The position numbers were made by a program, and so were the translations under genes. Below are positions 18,471 through 42,321 of a stretch of 64,000 nt of DNA, piece after piece (position 1 is the first letter of the stretch; every line of letters begins with the position of its first letter). The notes beneath the pieces are model-generated. The model was not told the DNA's origin. It made no database searches and was given only the letters and a program-made list of their open reading frames with translations. The stretch lies in contig JBBCGS010000002.1 in assembly GCA_037200125.1 (NCBI GenBank), positions 763,488 through 827,487 of the forward strand, read 5' to 3'. This DNA is from Gammaproteobacteria bacterium (GTDB taxonomy: Bacteria; Pseudomonadota; Gammaproteobacteria; Steroidobacterales; Steroidobacteraceae).

Positions 18471-19832
18471 TCAATACGAGGCGAGACTGTGGTCGCCAGG
18501 TGCGACGGCGGCGGTGGGCGCAAGCATCATCACCACCTTCGAGCGGGACGAGATCTTCGGTTGTTTCTTTGCCGGCACATACTCGTTCCAGACGAGGGCG
18601 AAACCGGCGCCCCATGGCGCAATCGCCGGGACCAGGGACCAGGGATCGCTGCGTGAAAGCCGATGCGCCTCTTCCCTCGGAGCGCCTGCGTCGTCGAACG
18701 TCTGGAAGTAGATTTCGTACTGCCCTTCGGTGTCGTCGGACCACGCTAGTCCCACGACACCACGATTCCACGCGAGGTACGCGCCAACGGAGCTACCACT
18801 CGATGTCGTGACCCTGTGGGCTCTCTGATCCACGGGGCTCTGGAACAGCGCGTCGGCATCACCGGCAAGCAAGTAGACCTCGGTGTTGCCATCGCGCGAG
18901 TCGAACCACGTCAGCGCGCCCTTGGCACCCTCGAACGCGATATCGGGATAGACGGACGCCGCTCCATCGTCATTCGAGAGGCGTTGTACTGAAACGGCGT
19001 CCGCTTCGGCGCGCACCAGATAGAGCTCGGATTGGCGCGTCCCGATCTTGGCATCGAACACCACCCATGCCCGCCCCTGGCCGTCCAGCGCGGCATTCAG
19101 GTTCCAGGTCGTGCGGCTCGCGACCGCCGCGCGCCGTCGGGGTACGACTTCACGGCCCTCGAGATCGAACCACGCGAACCACACGTCTGGCGCGTGGGGG
19201 CCCGAACCTTCGACCCAGGCGCAGAACACGCGATCGCCAGCGATGCGAATCACCGGGTTGCGCCCCATGTGGCCGTTGGCCGAGAGTCGTACTGTCCAGC
19301 GCGCGACGCCTTCACGTGTCCATGAGCCCAGGCGCGCCGTGAGCTCGCCGCTCCCGGGCATCTTGTCGTACCAACCTATGAAGATCTGGTCACGAGCCAT
19401 CTGCAACGACGGTTCATATGCGTTCCGTCGACCGTGGGTGAGCTGCAGCTCGCGCGAGACCGGCTCCGCGCCTCCAGTGAGACGCGCGAAGATCTGCGCG
19501 TACTTGCCACGGGTGTCGTACCACGCGACGGCGAGATCGCCGGTTCCCGGGGCGATGCTCGCCTCGTAGGCGCCGACATCCGAAGTGCTCATGACGAGGG
19601 GCGCGCCCGCCGCGACTTCGGCGCCCGATGCGCTCAATGCGCTCAATGCGCTCAATGCGCTCAATGCGCCCGATGCGCCCGATGCGCCCAATGCGCCCAA
19701 TGCGCTCGAAGCCGACGCCGACGCGCTGACCGAGGTGCTCGCGCCAACCGCGACAAATGCAAACGACGCGGCAACAGCCGCCACGGCCGCAAGCGCCGCT
19801 CTTATGCCCCGCCGGCCCGCGCGCCGTTCCAT
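18471..19832 (-). CDS. Secreted PD40-like (TolB-type) beta-propeller repeat protein with (S-A-L)n linker
   Basis: Signal peptide [28 protein letters not shown]. Repeated motifs AWYDTRG.., IGWYDKMPG.., FAWFDLEG.., LTWFDSRDGNTEVYLL, LAWSDDTEGQYEIYF fit the PD40 repeat consensus. The start overlaps the end of the CobN-like gene by about 30 nt. Confidence 0.7.
   Translation of the reverse strand: MERRAGRRGIRAALAAVAAVAASFAFVAVGASTSVSASASASSALGALGASGASGALSALSALSALSASGAEVAAGAPLVMSTSDVGAYEASIAPGTGDLAVAWYDTRGKYAQIFARLTGGAEPVSRELQLTHGRRNAYEPSLQMARDQIFIGWYDKMPGSGELTARLGSWTREGVARWTVRLSANGHMGRNPVIRIAGDRVFCAWVEGSGPHAPDVWFAWFDLEGREVVPRRRAAVASRTTWNLNAALDGQGRAWVVFDAKIGTRQSELYLVRAEADAVSVQRLSNDDGAASVYPDIAFEGAKGALTWFDSRDGNTEVYLLAGDADALFQSPVDQRAHRVTTSSGSSVGAYLAWNRGVVGLAWSDDTEGQYEIYFQTFDDAGAPREEAHRLSRSDPWSLVPAIAPWGAGFALVWNEYVPAKKQPKISSRSKVVMMLAPTAAVAPGDHSLASY
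19621..19710. repeat. 9-bp tandem repeat, about 10 copies (GCGCTCAAT/GCGCCCGAT/GCGCCCAAT)
   Basis: Directly visible. On the minus strand it encodes the in-frame (LSA)n / ALGASGASGALSALSALSALSASG linker of the PD40 protein. Confidence 0.9.
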
Positions 19833-22800
19833 CTGGAATGCCACCGTGAACGCCACGCAAACAGGAACATCAGCAGCGGGAGTGCGATCCACAGGAAGTC
19901 CCACGGCGTGTCGCGCACGAGCGCGCGGCCCTGGCTCACGGCCTGCGTGGCCTTCTGCTCCTGCTCCATCAGATAGCCGCGAAGCTGCGTGCTCGCGCCG
20001 ACGGGCGTCGCTTTCTCACCCGGTGCCTTGCCGTTCGCCGCGCTGCCAGCGGCTTTGCTGTCACTCGCCGCGCTGCTGGCCGTTTTGCTGTCACTCACCG
20101 TGTCCCTAGCTGCTTTGGTGTCACTCACCGCGCCGGCGGCGTTCGCCTGTGCGTACCGCGCTTCGTTCTGCTTCACGAACGCTTCAGCCGCACGCGCCGC
20201 CACCGGAATACTCCTTCGAATCTGCACCTCCATGGATTCGCGGAACCGCTCCAGCGCCGGCGCCGGCACATTCAACTCGCGACCGCGATCGAGCACATAT
20301 TCGAGCAGGCGTGGATTGCCGCACGTGAACTCGGCGCAACCGACGCCGTGCTCCTGCACGCTCTTCACGTATTCCTCGATCAGCCTTGTTTCGGTGGCGG
20401 CGTCGGCCTTCCAGTAGCCTTTGCGAATCGTCTCCACCATGCGCGCCGTCATGTCCTGATACGCGAAGGGCGAGTCCTTGTCGAAGAACGCTTTCAGCCC
20501 GAGCTTGTGTTTGTCCTGCACGTAGACGTCGAAGGTTTCCTTCCACATCGCGTCGTCGACAAGATCGGGCGCGGTCGCCTTCCAGCCCCAGAGATACTCG
20601 ACGAACGCGCGCATTTCGCCCGCGCCCGCATAGCCCTCCTTCTTCATTCCCTCGATCCACGTCGGGTTGACGTAGCGCGAGCGGAACTCGGTGCCGAGGA
20701 ACTCGTCCATCGAGGTCATCTGTGGCTTGCTGGGATTGCGAGTGTTCGTCACCACCATCTCGGGGCTCTTCCCATCGAGACTGCGGATCGCGTTCGCAAG
20801 ACCGCCCATGTACATGAACATGTCGTCGTTATCGAGCGCGCCGTACAGCATCGTGGAACTGCTGTGCACGACTTGGTCCGTGCCAGAGAGCGCCATGCGA
20901 AACACATCCGGCATCGCCTCGCCCCAGAAGCCATTGCCGTAGCCGTGACCCAGCTTGTTGATATAGTCGTCCGCCATGCCGCGATCGGTATCCCAGGTGC
21001 CGCTCGCCGCCGCGATCGTCGAGGTGTTCAGGTTGAACTGGCCGGGGGGCTCATCGAAGATGCGCACGCCGGCGTACCGATCCGCATCCTTCTCGCTGTA
21101 GCCCTTCGCGATGAGCGTGGCTTTCGCTTTCAGGTAGTGCTGGCGCACGAGGTTTTCCGCCTCGTCCATCGCCTTCACCTTCTGCACGGCATCGTCCATC
21201 AGGCGCGTGACGTTGTTGAACATGCCCTCGGCCGCCGAGGCGATGACGATATCGACGCGCGGCCGCTTCAGCTCCCGGCGCGGTATCACGCTGACGCCGA
21301 CGACTTTGCCGCGCACATCCCACACCGGTTTCGTGCCGAGCAGATGGAAGATCTGCGATTCGAGCACGCCTTCGTGCCGCATCGTCTCGTCGCCCCAGAT
21401 CACGAACGAGACTTTCTCGGGATAGCGCCCGTGCTTCGCCACGTATTGGGCGAGCATGTCGTCGGCGAGCTTCACGCCGAGCGCATACGCGGCGGGCTTG
21501 GGCACCTTGTCCGGATCGATGCCGAAGAAGTTCTTGCCGGTCGGGTAGGAGTCCGGGTTGCGGATCGGCTCGCCGCCAGTGCCTCCCGGGAGGAAGTGAC
21601 CCGATAGCGCACGCACGAAGTTACCAAGCTCCGCCGCGCCACTGGCGACAATCCGCTGCTCCATGTCGCCTGCGGCAACCTTCGCCTTGTTCGGGAGCAG
21701 GCTTCGATCGGCGCTCACGATCGCATCGATGGTGCTCTCGCGCAGCGGCTTCTCCGGCGTCAGCCCGAACGTGTGGAGCCCATAGGGAATGTTCTCGTTC
21801 TTCAGCACCAGCAGCTGATTCTCGACGCGATGAATCGCTTCATCGTCGAGCGGCTTCGTCGGGTCGAGGCCGAGATCCTTGGCGAGGCCCAGCTTCGCAA
21901 CCTGCTCCGTAATCGACTTCGCGTATGCTTCGGCAAGCTGCGGATTCTTGGTCTCATTCACCGAGTGATCGTTGATGGACTCGCTCAACGCCGCGAGATC
22001 CGCATACAGCCCGCCCTTCTTGAACGGCGGCACCATGTGATCCACGAGCGCCGCCATGCCGCGGCGTCGTGCAACGAGCCCTTCCCCGACCACATCGACG
22101 TTGTAGATGTAGATGTCTGGAAGGTCGGCAATGAGCGCATCGGGCGCGTCTTCCTCGGAGAGCCCGGCATCCTTGCCGTCGAGCCATTCGAGCGTGCCGT
22201 GGGTGCCGACATGCACAACCGCGTCGGCTTTGAAGCTGTTCTTCAGCCACGCATAACTGGCGACGTACTGATGATGAGGCGCGAGATCCTTCGCGTGATA
22301 CATCTTCTCCGCATCTTCACCCCAACCGCGCGCCGGCTGCGGCATGAGGATCACGTTGCCGTACTGGACGCGCGGAATGACGAGCGACATCTCGCCGCGT
22401 TCGGACGTGGTCATCAATTTCGTGCGCGACGGCGGCCCCCAGTCGTTCACGATCTTGTCGCGCAAGGCCGGCGGGAAACCGTCCAGCCAGCGCGTGTATT
22501 CCTTCACGCTCACCTGCGCCGCTCCGCCGTGCGTGAGCAATTCCGCCAGCTCACCGGGCGCGTAGCCGCCGACGTTGCGCGCCTTCGTCGTGATGTCGCT
22601 CAGCACACTCTTCGCCGCAAGATCCGCGTCGCCGAGGTCGTAGCCCTCGCGCTTCAACCGCTGAAGCATTCGCGCCAGCGATTCGGCGACGTTGAGATAG
22701 CTCGCCCCGATGTTCGCCTTACCCGGCGGGTAGTTGTAGTAAAGGATCGCGATGTGTTTATCCGCGTTGCGCTTCGAGCGCAGCGTGGCGTAGCGCAGCC

Positions 22801-23902
22801 CGCGCGCCACCGCCATCGAGACCCGCGACGGAATCGGATGCGTGACGACCACCGCGAGCCCGGTCTCCCGATCGCGCACTTTTTCCTTGCTGCCGACCAC
22901 GGTCGGCGCGACGGTCCCGGCCAGTTCCGGCACCGCCATCAGGAACGTGCCTTCGAACATCGAGAGCCCGGTCGCGGAGGATCGCCACTCCTTCTCGCTA
23001 CGCCCATAGAGGCTCACGAGGTTGATGATCGGCACATCGACTTTCGCCAGCACGTTCGACGAATCGAAATCCGCGAAGTTGAAGATGAATCCGAGCGCGA
23101 CATCCGCGCGCGCCGCGCCGTGCTCGTCCAACAGCATCTTCTCGGTGGCGAACGCGCCGGGATAGCCGAAATACGGAATGGCGTCGGCGCCCTGCCGCTC
23201 CACTTCCGCGATCATCGAATCGAGCAGCTCGGTGTCGCCGGTGTAGTAAGTCGACTTGTAGAAGCCGATTGCGACGCGTGGGCGGCCGGCGTGCGCCTTG
23301 CCGTTTTCACGGCGCCACGCGTCGAACTCATTCCAGGTGGCGAAAGCTCGCCCGCCTGAGGCGGAAGGGTAGTAGTAGCCGAAGTCCAGACTCCGCTCGG
23401 GCTCGGGCACCGTGAGCCCGGCAACGCCGGCCTTGGTGAGCGCGTACTTCATCAGCGCGAGCTGGTTGGTGGCACCCGCATGAGCCCAGTACGCGCGGGC
23501 GCGAGCATCCCAATCGACACCTTGTTCGAGATACCGCTCCTTCGGCAGCAGGCCCTCGCCGACGCCGAGAACCACGCCGTGACGACGCACGTCGGCGAGC
23601 AGGTCCACGCTATGCGCCTGGTTGAAGCGCTCGAGCATCTGCTCGTTCATCGTGTCGAGCACGAGCACGTCGGCGCCGGTCATCGCCTTCGCATCGGTTT
23701 CGTCGAACACGGATTCGGCGAGATAACCGAGAGTGACCTGGTCCTTGAGATCCGGCCGCTCGGCGAGCAGTTGCCGGTAAGCGCGCACCGTGCCGGGGAT
23801 GTTGCCGTCGGAATAGAGATAAACGATGCGAACGGGCTTCGCGACGGCCGCGAACGCCATGAACAGCAGCACTAGCGCAAGACTAAGGCTTCGCACCCGC
23901 AT
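19802..23902 (-). CDS. CobN/Mg-chelatase-H-like large chelatase subunit, extracytoplasmic: N-terminal signal peptide, C-terminal TM anchor (HmuS-like)
   Basis: CobN-family homology along about 1300 aa (e.g. [42 protein letters not shown]). N-terminus [21 protein letters not shown] is signal-like. C-terminus has an Asp/Ser/Lys low-complexity region then the TM helix [20 protein letters not shown] at 23902 verified; 23932 ([10 protein letters not shown]..) is an alternative. The ORF track's extension to 24121 is read-through of the hexanucleotide repeat. Confidence 0.85.
20044..20132. repeat. Three imperfect copies of an approximately 30-bp repeat (..TTTGCTGTCACTC(A/G)CCG..)
   Basis: Directly visible. 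It encodes the [29 protein letters not shown] low-complexity segment just before the C-terminal TM anchor of the CobN-like protein. Confidence 0.7.
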
Positions 23903-24458
23903 CACCCGGCGGCTGTGCGCCACTGGCGCCATCGCTTGGGCCGCCTCTGTCTCGGCCCCCGGCGCCAGTGCCGGTGCCAGTGCCAGTGCCGGTGCCAGTG
24001 CCAGTGCCGATGCCAGTGCCAGTGCCAGCGCCAGTGCCGGTGCCGGTGCCGGTGCCAGCGCCGGTGCCAGTGCCGGTGCCAGTGCCGGTGCCAGCGCCGG
24101 TGCCAGCGCCGGTGCCGGCATCCGCGCCTTCCGGCACGTAGATGACCTGCCCGTTCGCGAGCCGATACGCCACGCCGAGTCGCTCGCCGTTACCGGACAG
24201 CGCCTTGTCCGTCACCTTGTACGCTTTGATCTCGGTGCCCTTCTTCGTGATGATCTCGCGCTCCCCTTGCGCATTCGTCTTCACGAGCGTCACTTCGCTT
24301 TGCGCATCGACGAGATCGCCCATGCGATAGACGGAGAACAGCGTGATCATCAAGCCCACGATGAACACGATCGACACGTCGAACAGGTTCGCGACACCCG
24401 CGAGGGGATCTTCCTCAGGCGGTTCGTCCGGCGGCGGCAGTCGAAGAAAGCGACCCAC
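23883..24458 (-). CDS. DUF2149-family protein (ExbD/TolR-like partner of MotA/ExbB-type channels) with C-terminal (Gly-Thr/Gly-Ala)~28 tail
   Basis: N-terminal TM helix ([17 protein letters not shown]) and an about 110-aa core typical of DUF2149. The ORF reads without a stop through the GCCGGT/GCCAGT hexanucleotide repeat, giving ...[19 protein letters not shown]...[27 protein letters not shown]. Confidence 0.7.
23962..24120. repeat. Hexanucleotide tandem repeat (GCCAGT/GCCGGT/GCCAGC), about 27 copies
   Basis: Directly visible. One minus-strand frame gives the (GT/GA)n tail of the DUF2149 protein. Another gives a (PA/LA)n peptide in frame with, and upstream of, the CobN-like start. Confidence 0.95.
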
Positions 24459-24474
24459 GGTCAGACGCTCGCGC

Positions 24475-25119
24475 TCATCGGGCCTCGCCTGCCAGATGGC
24501 CTACCGGCTGGCCCGCCAACTCGCCCGCCACACGCTCGGCGAGATAGCGCTGTTCGCGCACCGCTTCGCTGGCCCACTTCTGGCGGATGGTGGTTACGAC
24601 ATAGGCCGCCGTCCCCGTCGCAAGCCCGATGATGGTCGTCGTGAACGCAACCACCATCTGCCCGGCCATCGCCTGCAGATTGCCGCTCGAGAGTGACGCG
24701 AGCGAGGCGCCCATGGGAATGAGTGTGCCGATGAGGCCGAGACTCGGACCAATGCGCACCAGCGCCCGCGCGAGATTCGCGCCGTGACGGGCCCGCTCTT
24801 CCTGCTCGAGCACGAGGTTCTCCAGATCGCCGCCGCCGAGCGGACCCTGCGCGACGCGCCCCGATACCTGCTCGACCAGCCCACGCAACGCCAGCGGCAA
24901 CTCGTTTCTGCGCTCGACGCTGGCGGCAAGCACCGGCCCCTTGTCGAGCCAGCGCGAGAGACGAAAGTCCCCGCGATCCCGCCGCCGCGCCAGCCACTCC
25001 ACCACGCACGCGGCGCCCACGAAGATCGTGGCGAACACGCACAGCCACAGCAGCACCATCACCGGGAATCTCAGCACCTGCCCCAACGCGAACAGGCCGT
25101 TTTCAAGCATCGACAACAT
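24475..25119 (-). CDS. MotA/TolQ/ExbB proton-channel family protein
   Basis: Three TM segments and the conserved C-terminal channel region [21 protein letters not shown]...[15 protein letters not shown]. 214 aa. Confidence 0.85.
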
Positions 25120-25121
25120 CG

Positions 25122-25742
25122 TCAGTTACGCCTCCAGCGTCGCGAGGCCGCGCCAGCCAGCGCGACCGCACCCACGCTCACCAGAACCCAAACCGGAATC
25201 GCGGTCGCCGCTTCCCCACGCGCCGAGGCGTTGAGCACCATCGCCGAAGTCCAGCCCGAGAGGACCTCGGGCACGGCGGCGAGGCAGATGCCCGACGCCA
25301 GCAGGAACAGCGCCGCCTCGTCACGAAGCTTGCGCGGCGCAAAGTCCGGCCGCAGCGCCACGAGCCCCGCGGCAAGCACCGGGAGCATCGCGCAGCACGG
25401 GAAGGCGATCATGGCCGGCGCGCCCTGGCTGACGAGAAAGGCACCGCCCTGCGCAGCGATGAAGCCCCCGCCGAGCAGCGCCACACCGTTTGCTATCCGG
25501 TACCACCTCGGCTGCCGCAAGTCGCCTTCAGGAGTCCCGACAAGTTGTATCAGCGCGAGCGACGCAATCAGGGCCGCGAGCACCACAGGCGGCACCTGCC
25601 ACTCCCCGATGAACAGCACCAGCCCCGCGCCAAAGCCGGCAATGAGCAGCGGCCCGACCAGACTGTGCCGAATCGCAGGCGCACCCGCCGCAAGCACCAC
25701 CGAGGCCAGCGCGAACAGCGTCCAGAAAGTGAAAAGACTCAT
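25122..25742 (-). CDS. Polytopic inner-membrane protein (6-7 TM), first gene of the CobN-like operon; possibly the DUF2162-type companion of DUF2149/ExbB-like proteins
   Basis: Almost entirely hydrophobic, 206 aa. Its stop is 3 nt before the ExbB-like start. I did not recognise a family at sequence level; the assignment rests on context only. Confidence 0.55.
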   Translation of the reverse strand: MSLFTFWTLFALASVVLAAGAPAIRHSLVGPLLIAGFGAGLVLFIGEWQVPPVVLAALIASLALIQLVGTPEGDLRQPRWYRIANGVALLGGGFIAAQGGAFLVSQGAPAMIAFPCCAMLPVLAAGLVALRPDFAPRKLRDEAALFLLASGICLAAVPEVLSGWTSAMVLNASARGEAATAIPVWVLVSVGAVALAGAASRRWRRN

Positions 25743-26016: not shown

Positions 26017-27975
26017 ATGCACAAGAAGACTACTGCAGTCGGCGCAGCCGCCTGCCTCTTTGCCGTACCCGGCACCCTCCTCGCCCAGACCGCCCCGAAG
26101 GCCGATGACCTGAACGAAGAAGTCGTCGTCACGGCAACCCGCGCGGGCGACGGCATCCGTGCCGACCTCCTCGGCACCTCGTTCACGGTGCTGACGCCGG
26201 CGGACCTGGAACAGCGCCAGACCCGTTACCTGTCGGACATCCTCCGCGACGTGCCGGGCATCGCCGTCAGCCGCAGCGGCGGGGCCGGTCAATTCACCCA
26301 GGTCCGCATCCGCGGCGCCGAGGGCAACCAGACGCTGGTGATGATCGACGGCATCAAGGCGAGCGACCCGTACGCGGGCGAGTTCGACTTCGCGACCCTG
26401 ATCGCCGATGACGTGGCGAAGGTCGAGGTGCTGCGCGGCCAGCAGAGCGCGCTCTACGGCTCGGACGCGATCGGCGGCGTCATCAACTACATCACCCTCA
26501 CCGGCAGAGAAATGCCAGGCACACGCCTGCGGCTCGAGGGCGGCTCCTTCGGCACCGTCGATCTGTCGGCCCGCACGGCCGGGGTCGCGGGGCCGCTCGA
26601 CTACTCGCTGAGCGCCGGCTACCAGAACACCGATGGCACGCCGACGGCGCGGAACGGTTCGCGCGACCTGGGCTCGGACAACACGGCGGCCTCCGCCAAG
26701 CTCATCTATTCAGTGAGCGACGACGCCCGCGTCAAGGCGGTCGTGCGCTACAGCCGCACCAAGGCGGACGCGAACGATCAGGACTTCAACTTCCCGCCGG
26801 GCCCGAACTACGGGTTCGTCGTCGACTCGCCGGGCAGCTACTACGAGAACCGCGCCGTATATGGCCTGCTGCGAGGAGAGCTCGACACCTTCGGCGGCAA
26901 CTGGTCGCACGCCCTTCAGGTGCAGGGCGTGGACGCGAAGCGCGATGGCTTCTCCAATAACGACTTGAGCGGTGGCGACGACGGTGGACGCCAGCGGTAT
27001 TCCTACGAAACGACGGTGCGTTTCGGCAGCGACGCCGTGAAGCAGAGCCTGACTGGCGCGCTCGACTACGAGCGTGAGACTTTCCAGAATCGTGGCCCCT
27101 TCCTCACCGACGAGCAGGGTCTCGAGCGCAGCCTGACCACCAAGGGCGTGGTAGCGCAGTACGAAGCGATCATCAATGACCGCATCGGCCTCGGCGCCTC
27201 GCTCCGCTACGACGACAACAGTCGCTTCGACAGCGACACGACGTATCGGCTGCAGGGCAGCTACAAGCTCGATAGCGGCACGCGCCTGCACGCCGCGGCG
27301 GGCTCGGGCACCAAGAACCCGGGGATCTTCGAGCTCTTCGGCTTCGACCCGGATACCTTCACCGGCAATCCGAATCTCAAGCCCGAAAAGTCGCACGGCT
27401 GGGAAGCGGGCGTGGAGCAGAGCTTCCTCGACCACCGCGCGCGCATCGACGTGACTTACTTCGACAACAAGCTGCGCGACGAAATCTTCACGACATTCGA
27501 CGCGAACTTCTTCTCGAGCCCGCTGAACAAGCCGAACGACTCGACGCAGAAAGGCGTCGAAATATCGCTCAATGCGCGCATCGGGGACGCCTGGAGCATC
27601 GACGCAAGCTATACCCACCTCGATGCGAAGGAGTTCGACACCGCCACGCGGAAGATGGTCGAGGAAGTGCGGCGCGCACCGAACATCGCAAGCCTGAATG
27701 TCGGCTGGCGCGGCATCGAGCAGCGGCTCGGCTTCGATCTCACCGTGCGCTACAACGGCGCGCAGCTGGACAGCAACTTCACCCTCGTGATCCCGACGCC
27801 GCAGGTGCGGCTCGACTCCTTCACGCTGGTCGACCTGGGCGGCGATTTCAAGATCACCGACAAGGTGCAGCTCTACGCCCGCGTCGAGAACGCGTTCGAC
27901 GAGAAGTACGAAGAGGTCTTCACGTTCCGGACGCCGGGCCGTGCGGAATACGCGGGAGTGCGCGTCAGGTTCTGA
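26017..27975 (+). CDS. TonB-dependent receptor, BtuB/metal-chelate type (about 650 aa)
   Basis: Signal peptide, TonB-box-like EEVVVTATR, plug motifs (DILRDVPGIAVSRSGGAGQFTQVRIRGAEGNQTLVMIDGIKAS, VEVLRGQQSALYGSDAIGGVINYIT) and C-terminal Phe (..GVRVRF). Divergent from the CobN-like operon. Confidence 0.9.
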   Translation: MHKKTTAVGAAACLFAVPGTLLAQTAPKADDLNEEVVVTATRAGDGIRADLLGTSFTVLTPADLEQRQTRYLSDILRDVPGIAVSRSGGAGQFTQVRIRGAEGNQTLVMIDGIKASDPYAGEFDFATLIADDVAKVEVLRGQQSALYGSDAIGGVINYITLTGREMPGTRLRLEGGSFGTVDLSARTAGVAGPLDYSLSAGYQNTDGTPTARNGSRDLGSDNTAASAKLIYSVSDDARVKAVVRYSRTKADANDQDFNFPPGPNYGFVVDSPGSYYENRAVYGLLRGELDTFGGNWSHALQVQGVDAKRDGFSNNDLSGGDDGGRQRYSYETTVRFGSDAVKQSLTGALDYERETFQNRGPFLTDEQGLERSLTTKGVVAQYEAIINDRIGLGASLRYDDNSRFDSDTTYRLQGSYKLDSGTRLHAAAGSGTKNPGIFELFGFDPDTFTGNPNLKPEKSHGWEAGVEQSFLDHRARIDVTYFDNKLRDEIFTTFDANFFSSPLNKPNDSTQKGVEISLNARIGDAWSIDASYTHLDAKEFDTATRKMVEEVRRAPNIASLNVGWRGIEQRLGFDLTVRYNGAQLDSNFTLVIPTPQVRLDSFTLVDLGGDFKITDKVQLYARVENAFDEKYEEVFTFRTPGRAEYAGVRVRF

Positions 27976-28057: not shown

Positions 28058-29266
28058 TCAGACCCACAAGCGAGTGGCGAGCCAGAACGTGCCGCATCCC
28101 GCCACAACCGCCGCGCTGGCATCGATCACAAAGGCGCGGGTACGTTCGAAGCCGCGCATGCGGAACAGCAGCAGTGCCCCCACGAGCAGACCGGCCACGA
28201 CCGTTTCGATGAGCAAGGCACCGAGATTGATGCTCGTCAGCAAGCTGACCTCGACCTGCGACGCTAGCCGCGCCGGCTCAATTGCCGCCGCCCACAGAAA
28301 TCCGTCCAGGAAGCCGAGCACCGCCGCGAGTAGCGGTGCCACCATCGGCGAGGTTTCACCGCGCGGAGTAGCTGCGGAGAACCCGGCGGAAATGACCGCT
28401 CCACCCAGCAGCAGCCACGCCGCCGCCGCGCGGTCGATCGACGCGGCGACGATCGCAGCGAGCAGCAGCAGACCGATCCATCCGGCGACGATTGGCCGCC
28501 GTTTCTCCGTTCGGGCAAGAACCACCGCGAGCGCTGCAAGCGCGGCAAGCAGGCCGACGAACGCGTGCACCGGTGTTGCGACGGGCGTGATCCAACCGGC
28601 CTGCGAGATCGCGATGGAGGCGCTGTAACCCAGCGCGAGAGCCAGAACCGCGTAAGCCAGGTCGCGACGTCTCCGGATGACCAGCGCCAGACCCAGAACG
28701 ACGCAAAGCAGGTCGGCGTTACGCAAGACCCGCTCGGCACCGAGGCGCAGATACATCGCCGCGTCCGGCCTTCTCAGCGCACCGTCGTCGGGAAGTTGCC
28801 ATTGCCGGTCGCTCGCCGTGAAGAGATGCTCGACGTCACGCCCCGCCTGGTAAACCCGCGCAATGTGGAGATGATCCGGAATACGCGCGAACAACGCGTC
28901 ATCCCGCAGCACTATCTGGCGTGGATCCTCACATCGATAAAAGATTTCGAAGCCATACAGACCAGCGCCCACCGACAACGGATCGACCCGGCCGAGGTCA
29001 TAGCCCTGATCGAGCGCCTCGCAGGCACCGCTTGCCGAACGTACCGACACCGTTCCGAGCAGGTACTGCGCGAGCTTCGCAACAGTGGCAACGGGCATGT
29101 CGCGCCCGATCAATCGCTGGGCGTCAGGAACGGGTAACAGGAATCGCAGCGTGACGGTTTTGCCGGAGATCACCCAGGTGGAGTAACTCACGCTCTGCGT
29201 TTCGGCGCAGGCCTGGCCCACCCACAGCGCCAGCAGGCCGAGCACGATCCAGCGCGGCGCTTTCAC
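28058..29266 (-). CDS. HupE/UreJ-family Ni/Co transporter with N-terminal periplasmic domain
   Basis: Signal peptide plus an about 170-aa soluble domain, then six TM helices of HupE/UreJ type. Its start overlaps the stop of the upstream SurA-like gene. Confidence 0.75.
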   Translation of the reverse strand: MKAPRWIVLGLLALWVGQACAETQSVSYSTWVISGKTVTLRFLLPVPDAQRLIGRDMPVATVAKLAQYLLGTVSVRSASGACEALDQGYDLGRVDPLSVGAGLYGFEIFYRCEDPRQIVLRDDALFARIPDHLHIARVYQAGRDVEHLFTASDRQWQLPDDGALRRPDAAMYLRLGAERVLRNADLLCVVLGLALVIRRRRDLAYAVLALALGYSASIAISQAGWITPVATPVHAFVGLLAALAALAVVLARTEKRRPIVAGWIGLLLLAAIVAASIDRAAAAWLLLGGAVISAGFSAATPRGETSPMVAPLLAAVLGFLDGFLWAAAIEPARLASQVEVSLLTSINLGALLIETVVAGLLVGALLLFRMRGFERTRAFVIDASAAVVAGCGTFWLATRLWV

Positions 29267-33040: not shown

Positions 33041-34153
33041 ATGTCCAACGATCACACCGCACGGCCTCATGATGATGACGATCACGATCATGACCATGAC
33101 CATGACCATGACCATGACCATGACCATGACCATGACGATGATCACGACCACGATCATGATGACGATCATCACGGGTTCGGCGCGCCGGCGCGCATTGGTG
33201 TCGCCGCGGCCATCCTGGTCGCCGCCGTTGCGGCGGCCTGCATCGTCATGATCCCAGCGGGCGAAGCGGGCGTTATCACGCGATTCGGTAATCCGAGTCG
33301 CGTCGTCACCGATCCCGGGCTCGCGTGGAAGTTACCGGTTCCCTTCGAGAACACGATTCCCATCGATCTGCGGCTGCGGACCACCTCCACCGGCTTGCAG
33401 GATGTGGGAACACGTGACGGTCTGCGCGTGCTCGTGCAGGCATACGTCGCGTGGCAGGTGCCCAACGATCCGCAGCGTATACGGCAGTTTCTGCGCTCGG
33501 TGCGCAACCAGCCGGACGAAGCCGCGCGCCAGCTGCGCAGCTTCGTGAGCGCGGCCATGCATATCACCTCGAGCAACTTCGAGCTCAGCGAGCTCGTCAA
33601 CGTGAGCGCCGACCGGGTTCGTCTCGAAGCGTTCGAGAACCAGCTGCGCGAGCAGGTTGCGCCTCGCATGCTGGAGGTCTACGGCATCGATATCCGCCAG
33701 GTCGGCGTCGAGCGGATGACGCTCCCCGATGAGACGCTCGCGGCGACCGTCGAGAGAATGCGCGCCGAACGAGAAACCGTCGCGGCCGAACGTACCGCCG
33801 AAGGTTTGCGGCAAGCCGCCGCCATCCGCGCCGATGCGGACCGCGATGCGCGCAAAGTAGTGGCCGAAGCGAAAACCCAGGCGGCACGTACCGAGGCCGA
33901 TGCGCAACAAGCGGCCGCGCGCACTTACGCGAAGGCTTATCAGACGGATCCGGGGCTCTACACCACGCTGCGTTCGCTCGATTCGATGAATCAGGTCATC
34001 GGCCGCAACACGAGTGTCGTGTTACGGACAGATGCCGCGCCGTTTCGAGTGTTGGTCGATGGCCCCGCAGGCGCAGGTGGACGTGCAAGCACCTCAGTAG
34101 CCGCGGGGGCGCCTGTCGCTGCAGCCGACGCGGCTAAAAAGAAGACGCCGTGA
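33041..34153 (+). CDS. SPFH/band-7 (HflC-like) protein with N-terminal (His-Asp)n metal-binding tract
   Basis: N-terminus MSNDHTARPHDDDDHDHDHDHDHDHDHDHDHDDDHDHDHDDDHHG, then a TM helix, an SPFH domain and an HflC-like coiled-coil tail. Confidence 0.85.
   Translation: MSNDHTARPHDDDDHDHDHDHDHDHDHDHDHDDDHDHDHDDDHHGFGAPARIGVAAAILVAAVAAACIVMIPAGEAGVITRFGNPSRVVTDPGLAWKLPVPFENTIPIDLRLRTTSTGLQDVGTRDGLRVLVQAYVAWQVPNDPQRIRQFLRSVRNQPDEAARQLRSFVSAAMHITSSNFELSELVNVSADRVRLEAFENQLREQVAPRMLEVYGIDIRQVGVERMTLPDETLAATVERMRAERETVAAERTAEGLRQAAAIRADADRDARKVVAEAKTQAARTEADAQQAAARTYAKAYQTDPGLYTTLRSLDSMNQVIGRNTSVVLRTDAAPFRVLVDGPAGAGGRASTSVAAGAPVAAADAAKKKTP
33068..33175. repeat. GATCAY/GACCAT hexanucleotide repeat encoding (His-Asp)n
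   Basis: Directly visible (gatcacgatcatgaccatgaccatgac...). The antisense 'MMIVIMIVVV..' ORF 32813..33172 is a translation artefact of this repeat. Confidence 0.9.
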
Positions 34154-35244
34154 ACGAGCCGGCGCACACCGCTGGCGCGGGCGAACACCCGGAGCGGGTG
34201 GGACCGCCCCCGGTACCACCACCGGGTCCGATCGCGCAGTCCGTCGCCATCGGTTTTCGCGCGGTGTATGTGGCGGGCGTTTTGCTCCTGTTGCTCTGGT
34301 TGTTGAGCAACGTGCACGAGATCCCCTCCGATAGTCAGGCGGTCGTGCAGCGATTCGGTCGCATCGTCCGAACCAAGGAAGCGGGGCTGCTGATTGCCTG
34401 GCCGCGGCCCATCGAGCAGATCCGGCTACTGCCCGGGCCCGACAGGCAACTGAGCCAGGAAGTCGGAACGTTGCCGCCGGCAACGGAAAAGGCGCGAAGC
34501 CTGGTGGGGCCATTCGCCAAGACACAGTCGATGCCGGCGAATGCCTCGGCGTATCTCACCGGCGATGGCAACGTCGTACTCCTGAGCGCGGCGCTGATCT
34601 ATCGCATCAGTGACGCGACCCGCTACTCGCTAGCGCAGACGCACGTGTCGCCGGCGCTCGATCGCCTCTTCCACTCCGCAACGGTGCGCGTCACGGCGGG
34701 ACGGAACCTGAATGACTTTCTGGTCGTACAGACCGGCAGTCAAGGGGCCAACAGCGCCGCGATAGCCCTGCGCAGCGAAGTGCGCGACGCGCTTCTGCAA
34801 TCCATGAACGCGCGCCTGCATGAGCTCGCGAAAGGCGGCGCGTCCCTTGGAGTCGAAGTCGAACGCATCGACATGACTGCCTGGCTGCCTCCGCAGGCCA
34901 AATCGGCATTCGATGCGGTGCTGATCGCCACCCAGGCCGCCGATCGCGGCGTGGCGGTTGCGCGTACCGACGCGGAGCGGCGCCGGCAGGAGGCCAATCG
35001 CCTTCGCGATCAGTTGTTGAGCGGAGCGCAGGCCACCGCGCAAGAACTGCTCAGCAGCGCAAGCGTGAACACCGCGGGCATCCTCGCGCTCGAGCAGGAA
35101 GCAACGCCCCAGACACGCGGCACACTGCTCTTGCGGGAGTATCGTGAGCAGGTCACCAACATCATGAACCGCGCCGGATCGGCCACACTGGTCGATCCGC
35201 AAGGCGGAACGCGCCTCGTACTACCGGGAAGAAAAGCCAAATGA
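34150..35244 (+). CDS. SPFH/band-7 (HflK-like) protein
   Basis: ATGA overlap with the previous gene. N-terminal TM (AVYVAGVLLLLLWLL), an SPFH domain and an Ala/Arg/Glu-rich C-terminal region. Confidence 0.8.
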   Translation: MNEPAHTAGAGEHPERVGPPPVPPPGPIAQSVAIGFRAVYVAGVLLLLLWLLSNVHEIPSDSQAVVQRFGRIVRTKEAGLLIAWPRPIEQIRLLPGPDRQLSQEVGTLPPATEKARSLVGPFAKTQSMPANASAYLTGDGNVVLLSAALIYRISDATRYSLAQTHVSPALDRLFHSATVRVTAGRNLNDFLVVQTGSQGANSAAIALRSEVRDALLQSMNARLHELAKGGASLGVEVERIDMTAWLPPQAKSAFDAVLIATQAADRGVAVARTDAERRRQEANRLRDQLLSGAQATAQELLSSASVNTAGILALEQEATPQTRGTLLLREYREQVTNIMNRAGSATLVDPQGGTRLVLPGRKAK

Positions 35245-37193
35245 GCGGCATGCACCATCTGTCTTCCGCCGCCGGTCATCATGGCCCGCGCCCCGGAGCA
35301 CTCCTCAACCGCGTCGAACGGCTGATGCTCGGGTTGCGCTTGTCGCTCGCCCTCGCGGCGCTGTGCCTGCTGCTCGTGGCGACGGCGATCAGTTACTTCC
35401 TGCCTTCCGAACGAGGCATCGCGGAGCTCGTCGCCGGCATCGCCGCCGCGCTCGTTGCGGTTCCGGTTTTTGTCGAGGCATGGGCGAGCCTGCGCCACCC
35501 GAGCCTGCACGGCATTACGGATCGTCTCGTCGCGCTGGCGCTCATCGCCGCGTGGGCGACCGGCGATCTCATGACCGCCGCGCTGTTGCCCATCATCATG
35601 ACCGTGGGCCATGTGCTCGAAGAGCGCAGCATGCTGGGCTCCCACGAAGCCGTGAAAGCACTCACGCGCCTGACCGCCGGCGATGCCCGTCGTCTGTTGC
35701 CCGGCGGGGCTACGGAAACGGTTCCGAACGAGCAGCTGCGTGTCGGCGACGTCATCGAGTTGCGTGCCGGCGAACGCGTGCCGGCGGACGGAGTCATTCG
35801 CAAGGGCAACTCGAGCCTCGACCTGGCATCGCTCACCGGTGAGTCGGTGCCGGTCGAAGTGCACGAAGGCGACGCCGCGCTGGCCGGCGCGATGAATCTC
35901 GACGGCCTGGTGCACCTCGAATTGACTCGCGTGGGCCAGGAAAGCACGGTCGGCCGCATCATCGAACTGATGCGCGAAGCCGAACATGCCAAGCCGCCGG
36001 TAACGCGACTCCTGGACCGCTATGCCGGGCAATACATGACGCTGGTGCTGCTGGTGGCCGGCGGAACGTGGCTTCTGAGCGGCAACGTGCCGGCGATGCT
36101 CGCGGTGCTGGTGGCTTCTTGCCCGTGCGCACTGGTTCTCGCGGCACCGGCAACCGCCGTGGCGGCGATCGCGGTGGCCTCCCGGCACGGCATCCTGATC
36201 AAGGGCTCGGGGTTCCTCGAGCACCTCGCGGATGTCTCCTCCGTCATCTTCGACAAGACCGGAACGCTGACCACGGGCGAGCTGCGCATGGCCGCGCTGG
36301 TGCCGGCCGAAGGCGTCGACCCCAACGCGCTTCGACAGCTTGCCGGTAGCCTGGGCGCCGGGAGCAACCATCCGCTCAGCCGCGCCGCCGCCGCGGCGGT
36401 TCCCAAATCCGAACGTCTCGTGATCGACGACGCGCGCGAGCTTGGTGGATTCGGCGTCACAGGCCTCTATGCCGGCGAAGTGGTGGCGCTCGGCCGTGCC
36501 GACCTCTTCGAACGCATCTCGGTGGCGGCGCCTCCTCCGCCCTCGCACAACGGACCGATCGCCGGCGTGAGCCGCGACGGACGCTTCCTCGGCTGGCTGC
36601 TCTTTTTCGATCAATTGCGCGTGAGCGCGCAAGGCGCCGTTCAGGATCTGAAGGGGCTCGGCATCGAACACATGGTGCTGCTCACGGGCGATCGCGAACC
36701 TGTCGCGCGGCAAGTGGCGGACGAGATCGGCATTCAGGAGATCTGGGCCGACATGCTGCCCGAGCAGAAAATGGATCGGGTGATGCACGAGATCAAGATC
36801 GGCCACCGCCCGATGGTGGTCGGTGACGGTATCAACGATTCGCTCGCGCTGCGCGCGGGCGCCGTGGGTGTCGCGATGGGGACGCAGGGCGCCGATGTGG
36901 CGCTCGCCTCCGCCGATATCGCACTGATGACCAACGATCTGCGGCGGCTCGGCACCTGCATCCGCCTGAGCCGGCGCTGCCGGCGCACGATCTATGTGAA
37001 CGTCGGGGTCGGGCTGGGATTCACTTTCGGGCTGATCGTGCTGTCCGGGGCGGGTGTTCTGGGACTGCAGGCGCCGATCATCGCGGCGCTGCTCCACAAC
37101 GTCAGCACCTTCATTGGGCTCGGGAACGCGGGCCGGCTGCTGTTGTTCGATGAGACGCAGACCGCAAATGCGGCCCCGTCGACGCATGGCTAA
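35241..37193 (+). CDS. Heavy-metal-translocating P1B-type ATPase, short P1B-4-like form (no N-terminal HMA domain); predicted Co/Ni/Zn exporter
   Basis: ATGA overlap with the upstream SPFH gene. TGES, SCPCAL in TM6, DKTGTLT, GDGINDS. The C-terminal helix HNVSTFIGLGNAGRLL resembles the P1B-4 HEGST..N..RLL signature. 650 aa with no CxxC metal-binding domain. Confidence 0.88.
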   Translation: MSGMHHLSSAAGHHGPRPGALLNRVERLMLGLRLSLALAALCLLLVATAISYFLPSERGIAELVAGIAAALVAVPVFVEAWASLRHPSLHGITDRLVALALIAAWATGDLMTAALLPIIMTVGHVLEERSMLGSHEAVKALTRLTAGDARRLLPGGATETVPNEQLRVGDVIELRAGERVPADGVIRKGNSSLDLASLTGESVPVEVHEGDAALAGAMNLDGLVHLELTRVGQESTVGRIIELMREAEHAKPPVTRLLDRYAGQYMTLVLLVAGGTWLLSGNVPAMLAVLVASCPCALVLAAPATAVAAIAVASRHGILIKGSGFLEHLADVSSVIFDKTGTLTTGELRMAALVPAEGVDPNALRQLAGSLGAGSNHPLSRAAAAAVPKSERLVIDDARELGGFGVTGLYAGEVVALGRADLFERISVAAPPPPSHNGPIAGVSRDGRFLGWLLFFDQLRVSAQGAVQDLKGLGIEHMVLLTGDREPVARQVADEIGIQEIWADMLPEQKMDRVMHEIKIGHRPMVVGDGINDSLALRAGAVGVAMGTQGADVALASADIALMTNDLRRLGTCIRLSRRCRRTIYVNVGVGLGFTFGLIVLSGAGVLGLQAPIIAALLHNVSTFIGLGNAGRLLLFDETQTANAAPSTHG

Positions 37194-37262
37194 CGATCTG
37201 GGCTAACGATCTGGGCTAACGATCTGGGCCAAGGATTCGGCTAGCGATTCTGGCCCATCGTC
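37185..37262. repeat. 13-bp direct repeat GGCTAACGATCTG x3, followed by 2 degenerate copies
   Basis: Directly visible: ggctaacgatctgggctaacgatctgggctaacgatctgggccaaggattcggctagcgattctggcc. It spans the 3' end of the ATPase gene and the convergent junction with cbtA. Confidence 0.8.
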
Positions 37263-38086
37263 CTCTCGCCGACGTAGCCGAACATCACGCCGATCGAGCC
37301 CCAGAGAACCGTCTGCAGCCCGATCGAGGCAACGCGGAAACTCCACAGCGTGTCGGCTGGGAAGCCGACCGGCACTTCGTTGATCGTGGGCAGAACGGTG
37401 AAGGCGAGCGCGATCACGACGAGGTACACGCCCACCGCCGCGACCGAGCTATTCCAGGCGCCGTGGCGCGCGAGCAGTCGCCGCCGCGTCATCCACGCGA
37501 CGACGGTCGCGGCGATCGAGATCGCGACCATGAGGAAGTAGAGGCCGGTTCGCAGCCGGATGGTGTCGGGCTCGCCCACCGCGGGCGGATTGGCCGGATA
37601 CTTGAGCGCCGGCACGAGATACACCGACAACAACCCGAGCGCGGAAAGCAGCGCCGCCGTGGGGCCCGCCGAGATCGCGCCGATACGCCCGTATGCCAGC
37701 GCGAACAACACCGCGAACAGGCAACCCAGGCCCGCACCGACAACCACCAGTCCGGTGAGAAGACCGATGCCACTCTGCACCGTTCGACTGAAGATCTCAG
37801 TCTCTTCATCGCCGTGATGGTGACCCGCCGGCTCCGCGGCGGCCGCTTCGGCGGCCTCGTTGTGATGATCGGCAGGCTCGGTGCCGGCTGGCTCGGCGGC
37901 CTCGGCCGCTTCATGGTGGTGACCGGCCGCTTCGGCTCCCGCCTCTTCATGCGCTTCGGAGTGCGCGGATTCGAAGGCGATAGCCGTTTCCACCTGCGCC
38001 TCGCCAAAGGCTCTCGCCCACCCGAAGGCCAGCAGCCCGGCCGCGATGCCGATGATCAACCCGAAAAGAATGAGCCGACCGACCAT
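37241..38086 (-). CDS. cbtA: Cobalt transporter subunit CbtA
   Basis: About 280 aa membrane protein with a His-rich loop (AAGHHHEAAEA...ADHHNEAAE...AGHHHGDEE) and a TM layout typical of CbtA. It follows cbtB. Confidence 0.78.
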   Translation of the reverse strand: MVGRLILFGLIIGIAAGLLAFGWARAFGEAQVETAIAFESAHSEAHEEAGAEAAGHHHEAAEAAEPAGTEPADHHNEAAEAAAAEPAGHHHGDEETEIFSRTVQSGIGLLTGLVVVGAGLGCLFAVLFALAYGRIGAISAGPTAALLSALGLLSVYLVPALKYPANPPAVGEPDTIRLRTGLYFLMVAISIAATVVAWMTRRRLLARHGAWNSSVAAVGVYLVVIALAFTVLPTINEVPVGFPADTLWSFRVASIGLQTVLWGSIGVMFGYVGERTMGQNR

Positions 38087-38120
38087 GGTTAGTTTTCCTG
38101 CTTGCGCGTCTGATGCTGGG

Positions 38121-38357
38121 CTAGTGGCAAGGAAAGCCGAGCAGGTGGCGGGCGTCGTGCACGAACTCGTGCACCCCCATGCCGCTCACGACCGACGTCG
38201 CGCCCTGCTCCGCACCCACGAAGTAGTAAGCGAAAACCATGACCAGACTTCCGAGGACCGCCCACGGCATGACTTTCCTGACGGGAATCGCAACCGGCGC
38301 GGCGGCGGCTGGGGCGGCGGCGGCGGCACTTTGTTCGGTGGGTGTGGCCATAGGCAT
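38121..38357 (-). CDS. cbtB: Cobalt transporter subunit CbtB
   Basis: 78 aa with a single TM (VMPWAVLGSLVMVFAYYFVG) and a C-terminal His-rich end (HEFVHDARH). It sits immediately upstream of cbtA. Confidence 0.72.
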   Translation of the reverse strand: MPMATPTEQSAAAAAPAAAAPVAIPVRKVMPWAVLGSLVMVFAYYFVGAEQGATSVVSGMGVHEFVHDARHLLGFPCH

Positions 38358-42009: not shown

Positions 42010-42321
42010 GCCGCGAGCCCGGGCCGCGCGCGCCCGCACGCCTCGCTCGCAAGGCGATGAATCGCCGCGCAATGCCGTCTCAACTTTCGTTGACGGTGAC
42101 AACGTTGTATGTTCACCCGGTCGGGATGCCGTTTTTTGGCCGTGCCACGCAGCGTGGGGGGACGGTGCAGCCTGTTGGTGTGAATACCATCATTGGCCGC
42201 CCGTAGACACCGGTGGGTTGCCGAGCTAAGAAGGACGCATCGCGATACGGGGCAACGAGGGGACAACTGCTTGTACTGGCGGTTCGGCGTTGGCGTTGAT
42301 GAATACTCGAGGCGCATCGCC

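Follow-up and report, generated by a model that had tools for sequence, protein, structure and literature searches.

In the period gene of Drosophila, a hexanucleotide repeat encoding Thr-Gly forms an in-frame coding minisatellite. Simple-sequence tracts are also found in the phase-variable contingency loci of host-adapted bacteria, which are driven by slippage. A low-complexity region of another kind is present in TonB, where a Pro-rich segment (Glu-Pro/Lys-Pro) spans the periplasm.

The DUF2149 family corresponds to HmuV of the hmuYRSTUV haem-uptake operon of Bacteroidota, in which HmuU is of the MotA/ExbB type and HmuS is a CobN-like dechelatase (PMC11681262, PMC10434189, PMC12583661). The pair that energises the receptor is taken in the literature to be HmuU/HmuV (PMC12583661).

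The window analyzed here, a stretch of 64,000 nucleotides in all, holds an hmu-type set consisting of a TonB-dependent receptor and CobN-like, MotA/ExbB-like and DUF2149 proteins, and the same cluster was found on the contigs of relatives. One operon was delimited on the minus strand at 18.4-25.8 kb (Table 1). With hmuYRSTUV of Porphyromonas and Bacteroides the locus shares the Pfam family of HmuV as well as the HmuU, HmuS, HmuT-position and receptor partners (PMC11681262, PMC10434189, PMC12583661). The gene order is different, however. It is Y-R-S-T-U-V, including HmuY, in the Bacteroidota operon. In the window the minus strand carries T-like, U, V, S in this order, the receptor gene is divergent, and no HmuY was seen among the identified neighbours of the operon. 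The Bacteroidota HmuV-like proteins end 0-1 residue past the YIPE motif, whereas the window protein continues for 81 residues past YVPE. The best solved relative of the CobN-like protein was the HmuS haem dechelatase 9d26 (E = 2.6e-143), and the match to CobN 7c6o was about equal (E = 2.5e-138). Neighbouring genes are of the cobalt type (HupE_UreJ_2, CbtA and a CbtB-like ORF), and a rotamase and a cytochrome c were also identified among the neighbours. No cobalamin riboswitch or other Rfam family was found at positions 15000-40000.

Table 1. Features of the hmu-like operon and of the repeat array, in window positions (SD, Shine-Dalgarno).
Feature	Position	Strand	Remarks
Third lineage-specific in-frame repeat	19621..19709	-	9 nt x 9.4; N-terminal linker of the 453-residue protein; about 41-residue insertion compared with L057
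CobN/HmuS-like chelatase-superfamily gene	19802..23902	-	1,366 residues; N-terminal signal peptide, C-terminal TM anchor
Second lineage-specific in-frame repeat	20038..20133	-	30 nt x 3.2; C-terminal linker of the CobN-like protein; 26-residue insertion compared with L057
453-residue protein	downstream of CobN-like gene	-	no Pfam match
DUF2149/HmuV-like gene	23883..24458	-	GTG start, 191 codons plus TAG; start matches N-terminus of homologues
Conserved 20-nt overlap	23883..23902	-	DUF2149 stop over CobN-like start ATG 23902 (homologous to the start in relatives)
Non-conserved C-terminal tail	23886..24128	-	residues 111-191, predicted disordered; net +72 codons (216 nt) compared with P0001
ATG 23902		-	SD -3.8 kcal/mol; mean unpaired probability 0.23 (ATG itself 0.08)
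Non-repeat part of lineage-specific insertion	23904..23960	-	holds AGAGG SD-like site and ATG 23932
ATG 23932	23930..23932	-	in non-repeat insert; start chosen by both NCBI and Logan gene calls; AGAGG, -7.5 kcal/mol, unpaired 0.46
Hexanucleotide array	23961..24116	-	imperfect; 26 units GGC-RYY; 156 bases
ATG 24121	24119..24121	-	ancestral CCGGAAGG SD 5 nt upstream; -5.7 kcal/mol; unpaired 0.27; would add 73-residue (Pro-Ala/Leu-Ala)n
Conserved DUF2149 core	24129..24404	-	Pfam residues 19-110; TM helix, small beta-rich domain, conserved YVPE end
MotA/TolQ/ExbB-family (HmuU-like) gene	24475..25119	-	Pfam
Polytopic membrane protein, HmuT position	25122..25742	-	206 residues, no Pfam match; first operon gene
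TonB-dependent receptor	26017..27975	+	divergent; sub-threshold B12/haem-type matches

Sequence and reliability of the array

The strongest tandem array of the window was located by Tandem Repeats Finder at 23964-24116, with a period of 12, 12.8 copies, 89% matches and a score of 215. In the DUF2149 frame the hexamers, running from 24116 to 23961, are GGCACC (10 copies), GGCACT (10), GGCGCT (4), GGCATC (1) and GGCGCC (1), and the encoded peptide is made up of 20 Gly-Thr, 5 Gly-Ala and 1 Gly-Ile. Beyond the last hexamer comes a single degenerate unit, GGGGGC. The pattern (GGCRYY)x4 matched the window 23 times and all 23 matches fell within the array, compared with 0.00 expected from 100 dinucleotide-preserving shuffles. 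The sequence-only reading had described about 27 copies translated without a stop as part of the DUF2149 ORF. Counting the degenerate unit this was a fair estimate, the array coordinates and the translation of the ORF (23883-24458, minus strand) were correct, and the ORF stays open down to 23883.

The array is interrupted, with perfect hexamer runs of at most 23 nt (3.8 copies). Perfect tracts of longer period are nested in it (period 12, 2.9 copies; 18, 2.6 copies; 36, 1.7 copies), and every period (6, 12, 18 or 36 nt) is a multiple of 3. The codons are atypical. In the DUF2149 frame ACT makes up 50% of the Thr codons compared with 6.3% in the genome background, and GCT 80% of the Ala codons compared with 5.4%. 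GCA accounts for 81% of the Ala codons of the CobN frame (21 of 26), against a background of 7.2%. Since both frames are rich in rare codons, codon usage was uninformative as a means of telling the coding frame of the array. The third frame (HRRW) has a GC3 of 0.98, but stop codons are present just upstream of the array, in the DUF2149 core. Taken together, the atypical codons and the nested periodicities suggest that a T-containing founder unit was multiplied by block duplication and slippage, and speak against selection on the peptide. A probable founder is GCG-GGC-GCG (Ala-Gly-Ala) in the ancestral DAGAKP tail, and two copies of GAT-GCS-GGY flank the insertion. No promoter-like site was found in 23600-24700, and no terminator in the array.

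The units of the array are arranged head to tail and are multiples of 3, the ORF stays open through them, and the array is absent or different in orthologues. It is thus an in-frame coding minisatellite of a known kind, with a single unusual feature, its position in a conserved gene overlap. As in Drosophila period and in the bacterial (GT)n linkers of P0292, P0369 and the MscS-like L071 and L082, a hexanucleotide Gly/Thr tract preserves the frame, differs in length and is predicted to be disordered. The window array differs from these in that it lies in a gene-overlap region holding the initiation site of the next gene, and in that one allele is known. Contingency loci are similar in having a tandem simple-sequence tract within a gene and slippage as the presumed generator. 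In the window, by contrast, the unit length is divisible by 3, the tract is interrupted and no on/off outcome results; neither a shift of frame or promoter spacing nor a long perfect tract was found.

The window was 100% identical to a 1.25-Mb hifiasm-meta contig, JBBCBH010010861.1 (assembly GCA_037975565.1), from a PacBio HiFi metagenome of deadwood, and HiFi reads with a mean length of 18 kb span the array. A Logan contig of 4,144 nt from SRR28211700, obtained by a separate k-mer assembly, was identical across the whole array. An assembly artefact is unlikely, because two assemblers agree base for base and the frame is intact through the whole insertion to the ancestral stop. An error adding a stop after the DUF2149 core, which had been named earlier as a possible weakness, is contradicted by the two identical assemblies, in which no such stop occurs. 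The contigs of several relatives stop or become chimeric at the DUF2149/CobN junction. The array is a clean, well-resolved case of a long-read metagenome keeping a coding minisatellite where short-read assemblies break.

Scanning of the genome collection gave a best DUF2149 match of 86% identity, to a Gammaproteobacteria MAG, and no relative at the species level. A second allele with another copy number was found neither by exact protein look-up nor by full-length protein search. Among metagenome contigs, an exact 24-mer of the non-repeat insert gave 0 matches, and a degenerate pattern of the P-E-G codons followed by the array gave 13 matches, 0 of them in DUF2149 genes. The FtsH encoded in the window matched one NCBI protein at 100% identity, and the next-best comparable database proteins were 78-79% identical.

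The DUF2149 tail and its relatives

The window protein matched PF09919 (DUF2149) with 105.3 bits, against a curated cut-off of 27.1, and residues 19-110 covered model positions 1-92 of 92. Invariant columns in an alignment of 35 sequences were N24, L25, F26 and D27 (NLFD) and, at the other end, Y107 and P109. AlphaFold2 was run with 36 close homologues and gave a mean pLDDT of 54.6. A helix was predicted with confidence at residues 18-52, and residues 54-110 formed a small beta domain of low confidence, with a pLDDT below 50. In the tail, residues 111-191, no secondary structure was predicted and the pLDDT was about 40-48.

Like ExbD and TolR, the DUF2149 protein is a small single-pass protein encoded beside a MotA/ExbB-family gene, and its membrane Asp lies in a similar motif (compared on the ExbD side with FIDVMLVLLIIFM). 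Similarity to ExbD by sequence was not significant: hhalign against E. coli ExbD gave a probability of 0.7%, with a 13-residue TM motif alone aligned. No PF02472 match was found, and a PDB profile search returned no ExbD or TolR. ExbD has no low-complexity tail, unlike the window protein. The tail resembles the Pro-rich spacer of TonB in being a low-complexity segment, presumed periplasmic, in a TonB-type energy-transduction system. However, the window tail is Gly/Thr-rich and flexible, terminal, and absent from nearly all of the family, whereas the TonB spacer is Pro-rich and rigid.

About 1,900 family members were found in a search with the DUF2149 core. Nearly all of them have 114-120 residues, and in more than 90% the tail consists of 5-10 residues. 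In 53 genome loci, ranging from Acidobacteriota to Bacteroidota and Methanosarcinaceae, 0-24 residues follow YVPE/D and no column is conserved. The closest relative, P0001, occurs on 62 Logan contigs and has a core of 94% identity. It has 119 aa, carries no array and is 72 codons shorter than the window protein. The C-terminus of P0001 is ...YVPEGQADAGAKP (...PEGQADAGAKP), and that of the window protein reads ...YVPEGADAG, then the array and then the insert to DAGAKP*, so that beyond the array the window ORF regains the same ancestral ending. The flanking DNA aligns on both sides, and the net difference is exactly 72 codons (216 nt). The junction sequence is ATG CGG G(T/C)G CGA AGC CTT AG in both, with both stops located 20 nt inside the CobN-like ORF.

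Repeat-built tails were found at the same site in two sister lineages with cores of 91% identity, P0003 (15- and 45-nt units) and P0002 (15- and 27-nt units). These tails are rich in Gly, Ala, Asn and Ser, comprise 54-60 residues and keep the frame as far as a stop that overlaps the CobN ATG. On sequence comparison, the P0002 and P0003 lineages are independent expansions of the same site. No Gly-Thr tail was found on another DUF2149 protein, either by full-length search of 5.8 billion proteins or by a degenerate DNA scan of metagenome contigs. Four further candidates for long-tailed homologues were rejected: P0122 was a chimeric, inverted contig end, and P0084, P0124 and P0126 were frameshifted or DUF2149-CobN fusions. 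The sequence-only reading had proposed that tail length could vary between strains by frame-preserving gain and loss of repeats. This agrees with the differences between the P0001, P0002 and P0003 lineages, but no variation was seen within the lineage of the window and the collections searched contained one allele. Instability of the array is accordingly read from the comparison between lineages. The same reading had suggested that the repeat may act as a flexible disordered linker. Disorder is in agreement with the AlphaFold2 values, but a linker role is not, since the segment is a terminal tail with no domain beyond it.

The explanation we favour, with a probability of roughly 70%, is a translated, lineage-specific and near-neutral expansion of a minisatellite at a permissive site. 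Duplication and replication slippage would have built up the array within the C-terminal tail of DUF2149, which is short and unconserved. Ribosomes on DUF2149 would read through the array, adding about 72 residues, mostly (Gly-Thr/Ala)26, to this small single-pass membrane protein, which partners a MotA/ExbB-type protein within an hmu-like TonB-receptor/CobN-like operon. Since nothing in the sequence of the tail itself is conserved, the site would tolerate expansion. Two constraints are visible, namely that the DUF2149 frame is open to a stop inside the CobN start and that a usable CobN start is kept. The C-terminal tail of HmuV/DUF2149 is accordingly seen as a permissive hotspot, limited mainly by the overlapping CobN/HmuS-like start. 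By analogy with ExbD the tail would be on the periplasmic side. Most likely the tail is neutral, or serves at most as a non-specific spacer, and it could be clipped after synthesis. The expansion looks like ordinary slippage at a tolerant site and calls for no new mechanism.

The junction with the CobN-like gene

In most loci of Proteobacteria and Acidobacteriota the CobN-like ORF begins 4-26 nt before the DUF2149 stop, mostly 17, 20, 23 or 26 nt. Short-tailed members have conserved Pro-Glu-Gly codons (CCGGARGG), which are SD-like, 5-8 nt upstream of the CobN ATG. In the window some 220 nt now separate this ancestral SD from the homologous ATG 23902 downstream of it, with the stop/start geometry the same as before, and a new SD/ATG pair (AGAGG and ATG 23932) is present within the insertion. 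In the long-tailed sister lineages the upstream ATG close to the P-E-G codons has been lost, and the terminal ATG is preceded at 5 nt by a strong GGAGGG. Of the three in-frame ATGs of the CobN-like gene, the one at 23932 has the best SD duplex and the highest accessibility. From the SD and accessibility values of the three ATGs, and from the sister lineages that have no upstream ATG, the most likely start of the CobN-like protein is ATG 23932 or 23902, both downstream of the array, and the protein would have its normal signal peptide. With three in-frame ATGs the start is ambiguous, and caution is needed in annotation.

The DUF2149 ORF had been described as ending about 20 nt inside the CobN-like gene, which is right provided that CobN starts at ATG 23902. 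The accompanying statement that the repeat overlaps the CobN start region needs to be amended. The array itself stops short of both downstream starts, by 59 nt for ATG 23902 and by 29 nt for ATG 23932, and it is the non-repeat end of the tail that overlaps CobN. A (PA/LA)n reading of the repeat had also been pointed out, and this frame is truly open from ATG 24121 to the CobN body.

The open frame raises the question of dual coding, in which the same hexamers would be read both as the (Gly-Thr)n tail of DUF2149 and as a 73-residue (Pro-Ala/Leu-Ala)n extension of the CobN-like protein ahead of its signal sequence. A 6-nt unit keeps both frames at each gain or loss. The sole start of the closest relative is an ATG 7 nt past the P-E-G codons, and the window keeps this arrangement at 24121, where the SD duplex of -5.7 kcal/mol compares with -7.2 kcal/mol in L056. 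At the homologous position the SD of ATG 23902 is very weak, and the ATG itself is mostly base-paired. Gene callers are unable to pick 24121, as a same-strand overlap of 239 nt would be implied. Against dual coding, ATG 23932 has the better SD, is the most accessible and leaves the signal peptide normal. No ATG is present close to the P-E-G codons in the long-tailed sister lineages, and in one of them a stop interrupts the CobN frame within the tail. An uncharged stretch of 55 Pro, Ala and Leu residues before the signal peptide was found in no homologue and could disturb export, and the dominance of GCA among the Ala codons also argues against a translated CobN frame. Some initiation could take place at ATG 24121, making the array readable in two frames, but dual coding is considered improbable and a (PA/LA)n extension of the CobN-like protein unlikely.

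Possible roles of the array and repeats elsewhere

The operon occupies about 11% of the window and holds 3 of its 5 strongest arrays, although this enrichment statistic is post hoc. Three lineage-specific insertions are present in the operon (Table 1), each in a linker adjoining a membrane anchor. An explanation for this pattern could be a selected tether, the DUF2149 tail being a length-tuned flexible periplasmic spacer toward the CobN-like enzyme, peptidoglycan or the outer-membrane receptor, lengthened together with the two downstream linkers. The lengthening of the same tail in sister lineages and the use of (GT)n as an inter-domain spacer in P0292 fit this explanation. The closest relative and more than 90% of the family manage with a short tail, however, and the tails have no common motif or length. 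The rare codons of the array speak against long-term selection, and a (His-Asp)n tract in an unrelated nearby gene is more in line with a general tendency to repeat expansion. A selected tether is for these reasons regarded as doubtful.

The (His-Asp)n tract was observed in an unrelated SPFH protein 9 kb from the array. Together with the two other operon repeats it points to a genome prone to expanding low-complexity linkers.

The array could also act as an RNA element. Structure in the GC-rich array would block independent initiation of CobN, and ribosomes translating DUF2149 would unwind it, enforcing translational coupling, on which an effect of the repeat had been suggested earlier. The 271-nt RNA around the array had a folding energy of -159.3 kcal/mol (z = -3.8), with none of 200 dinucleotide shuffles as stable. 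ATG 23902 and ATG 24121 were largely paired in the ensemble, and the stop/start overlap is conserved throughout the family. However, such stability follows automatically from the repeated CCGG, CUGG and GGCGCC motifs, relatives couple the DUF2149 and CobN genes in loci that have no array, and ATG 23932 is fairly open. This explanation is given little credence. A coordinated tuning of tethers driven by repeats, in which slippage in two frames lengthens both partners alongside the two other linker expansions of the operon, is likewise very doubtful; if true, each slippage event would lengthen two partners of one TonB-type uptake complex together. Should the tail or the two-frame reading be functional, this would bear on the periplasmic assembly of the poorly understood HmuU/HmuV/HmuS module. 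The present findings require no functional role for either.

Simple-sequence tracts are classic sites of slippage switching and of assembly error, but a phase-variable contingency locus or a sequencing or assembly artefact is extremely improbable here, since the unit and the higher periods are multiples of 3 and the frame cannot be switched by copy change, the longest perfect hexamer run of 3.8 units is not of a fast-switching kind, the array lies outside any promoter, and the spanning HiFi reads, the two concurring assemblers and the intact frame speak for a genuine sequence.

Gly-Thr tracts of similar length were found in other proteins. A HMMER scan with the tail alone against 1.84 billion representatives gave 234 proteins at E<=1e-3, with (GT)n tracts of 40-60 residues in unrelated proteins. 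Examples include tracts located between two repeated domains (P0292), after signal peptides and in C-terminal tails. Two related MscS-like proteins from metagenome contigs, L071 and L082, have (GT/GA)n C-terminal tails that differ in length. Gly-Thr tracts of such length are thus uncommon, but not unique.

The DUF2149/CobN junction and the contigs that break at it

At the family junctions of loci L002-L038, the codons for the conserved Pro-Glu-Gly of DUF2149 were found to read CCGGARGG (24117-24131 in the window), and this stretch likely also provides the CobN-like gene with its Shine-Dalgarno site. At these junctions DUF2149 usually stopped 17-26 nt into CobN, with CobN always in the +1 frame relative to DUF2149. 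For the most part, the DUF2149 "tail" is what results when the initiation region of CobN is read in the other frame.

Short-read contigs of relatives terminate or fold back as inverted chimeras at the DUF2149/CobN junction, as observed for L062, L068 (DUF2149 homologue P0122) and L069 (P0005), the last of which breaks off at the N-terminus of CobN, inside a tract of (Ala-Asp-Ala)n. Short-read metagenomes probably under-sample repeat-bearing alleles. The DUF2149 ORFs of three homologues from another lineage (P0084, P0124 and the 249-residue P0126) extend into frameshifted sequence, and that of P0126 reaches into the CobN-like N-terminal domain. These run-on ORFs are either sequencing errors or else real fusions or pseudogenes.

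Other repeats in the operon and similar tails elsewhere

Two further in-frame tandem repeats were found in the hmu-like operon, and both correspond to insertions compared to the closest relative, L057: 26 residues in the CobN-like linker and about 41 residues in the 453-residue protein downstream. Tails of the type (Gly-Thr/Gly-Ala/Asp-Thr)n also end two related metagenome genes for MscS-like mechanosensitive channels (L071, 2709-2771; L082, 1196-1252). The tail length differs between L071 and L082, so that these genes offer an independent case of a variable tail like that of the DUF2149 protein of the window.

Repeats and gene trio located in the window
Feature	Position	Strand	Location or content
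9 nt x9.4, in frame, (Ala-Leu-Ser/Gly)n	19621-19709	-	453-residue protein, past N-terminal anchor
30 nt x3.2, in frame	20038-20133	-	CobN-like C-terminal linker, ahead of TM anchor
CATGAC x11.8, in frame	33089-33159	+	Inside ORF 33041-34153
GGCTAACGATCTG, 13 nt, about 5 copies, last two degenerate	37188-37253		P-type ATPase gene end, short gap and 3' end of convergent CbtA gene
Gene trio	42193-47770		Planctomycete-type PSD/PSCyt multidomain cytochrome-like protein (DUF1592/1588/1585/1587/1595), then DUF1552 (HXXSHH) protein, then 565-residue ankyrin-repeat protein

Metal-transport neighbours and an unusual gene trio

The hmu-like operon is flanked by a cobalt/nickel-type gene set (28058-29266 and 35241-38357) comprising HupE_UreJ_2, a P-type ATPase, a CbtA whose loops are His-rich and a CbtB-like ORF of 78 residues. 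The stretch 15000-40000 gave no match to any Rfam family, cobalamin riboswitches included. Haem, a corrinoid or a metal are candidate substrates of the CobN-like system. The unit of the repeat that spans the ends of the P-type ATPase and CbtA genes is not a multiple of three nucleotides. The CATGAC array, the second in-frame hexanucleotide repeat of the window, gives an SPFH/Band7 (HflC-like) protein its N-terminal (His-Asp)n tract, DDDDHDHDHDHDHDHDHDHDDDHDHDHDDDHH. The gene of this protein sits among metal-transport genes, and the tract could be metal-binding. The trio at 42193-47770 is unusual for a gammaproteobacterial MAG.
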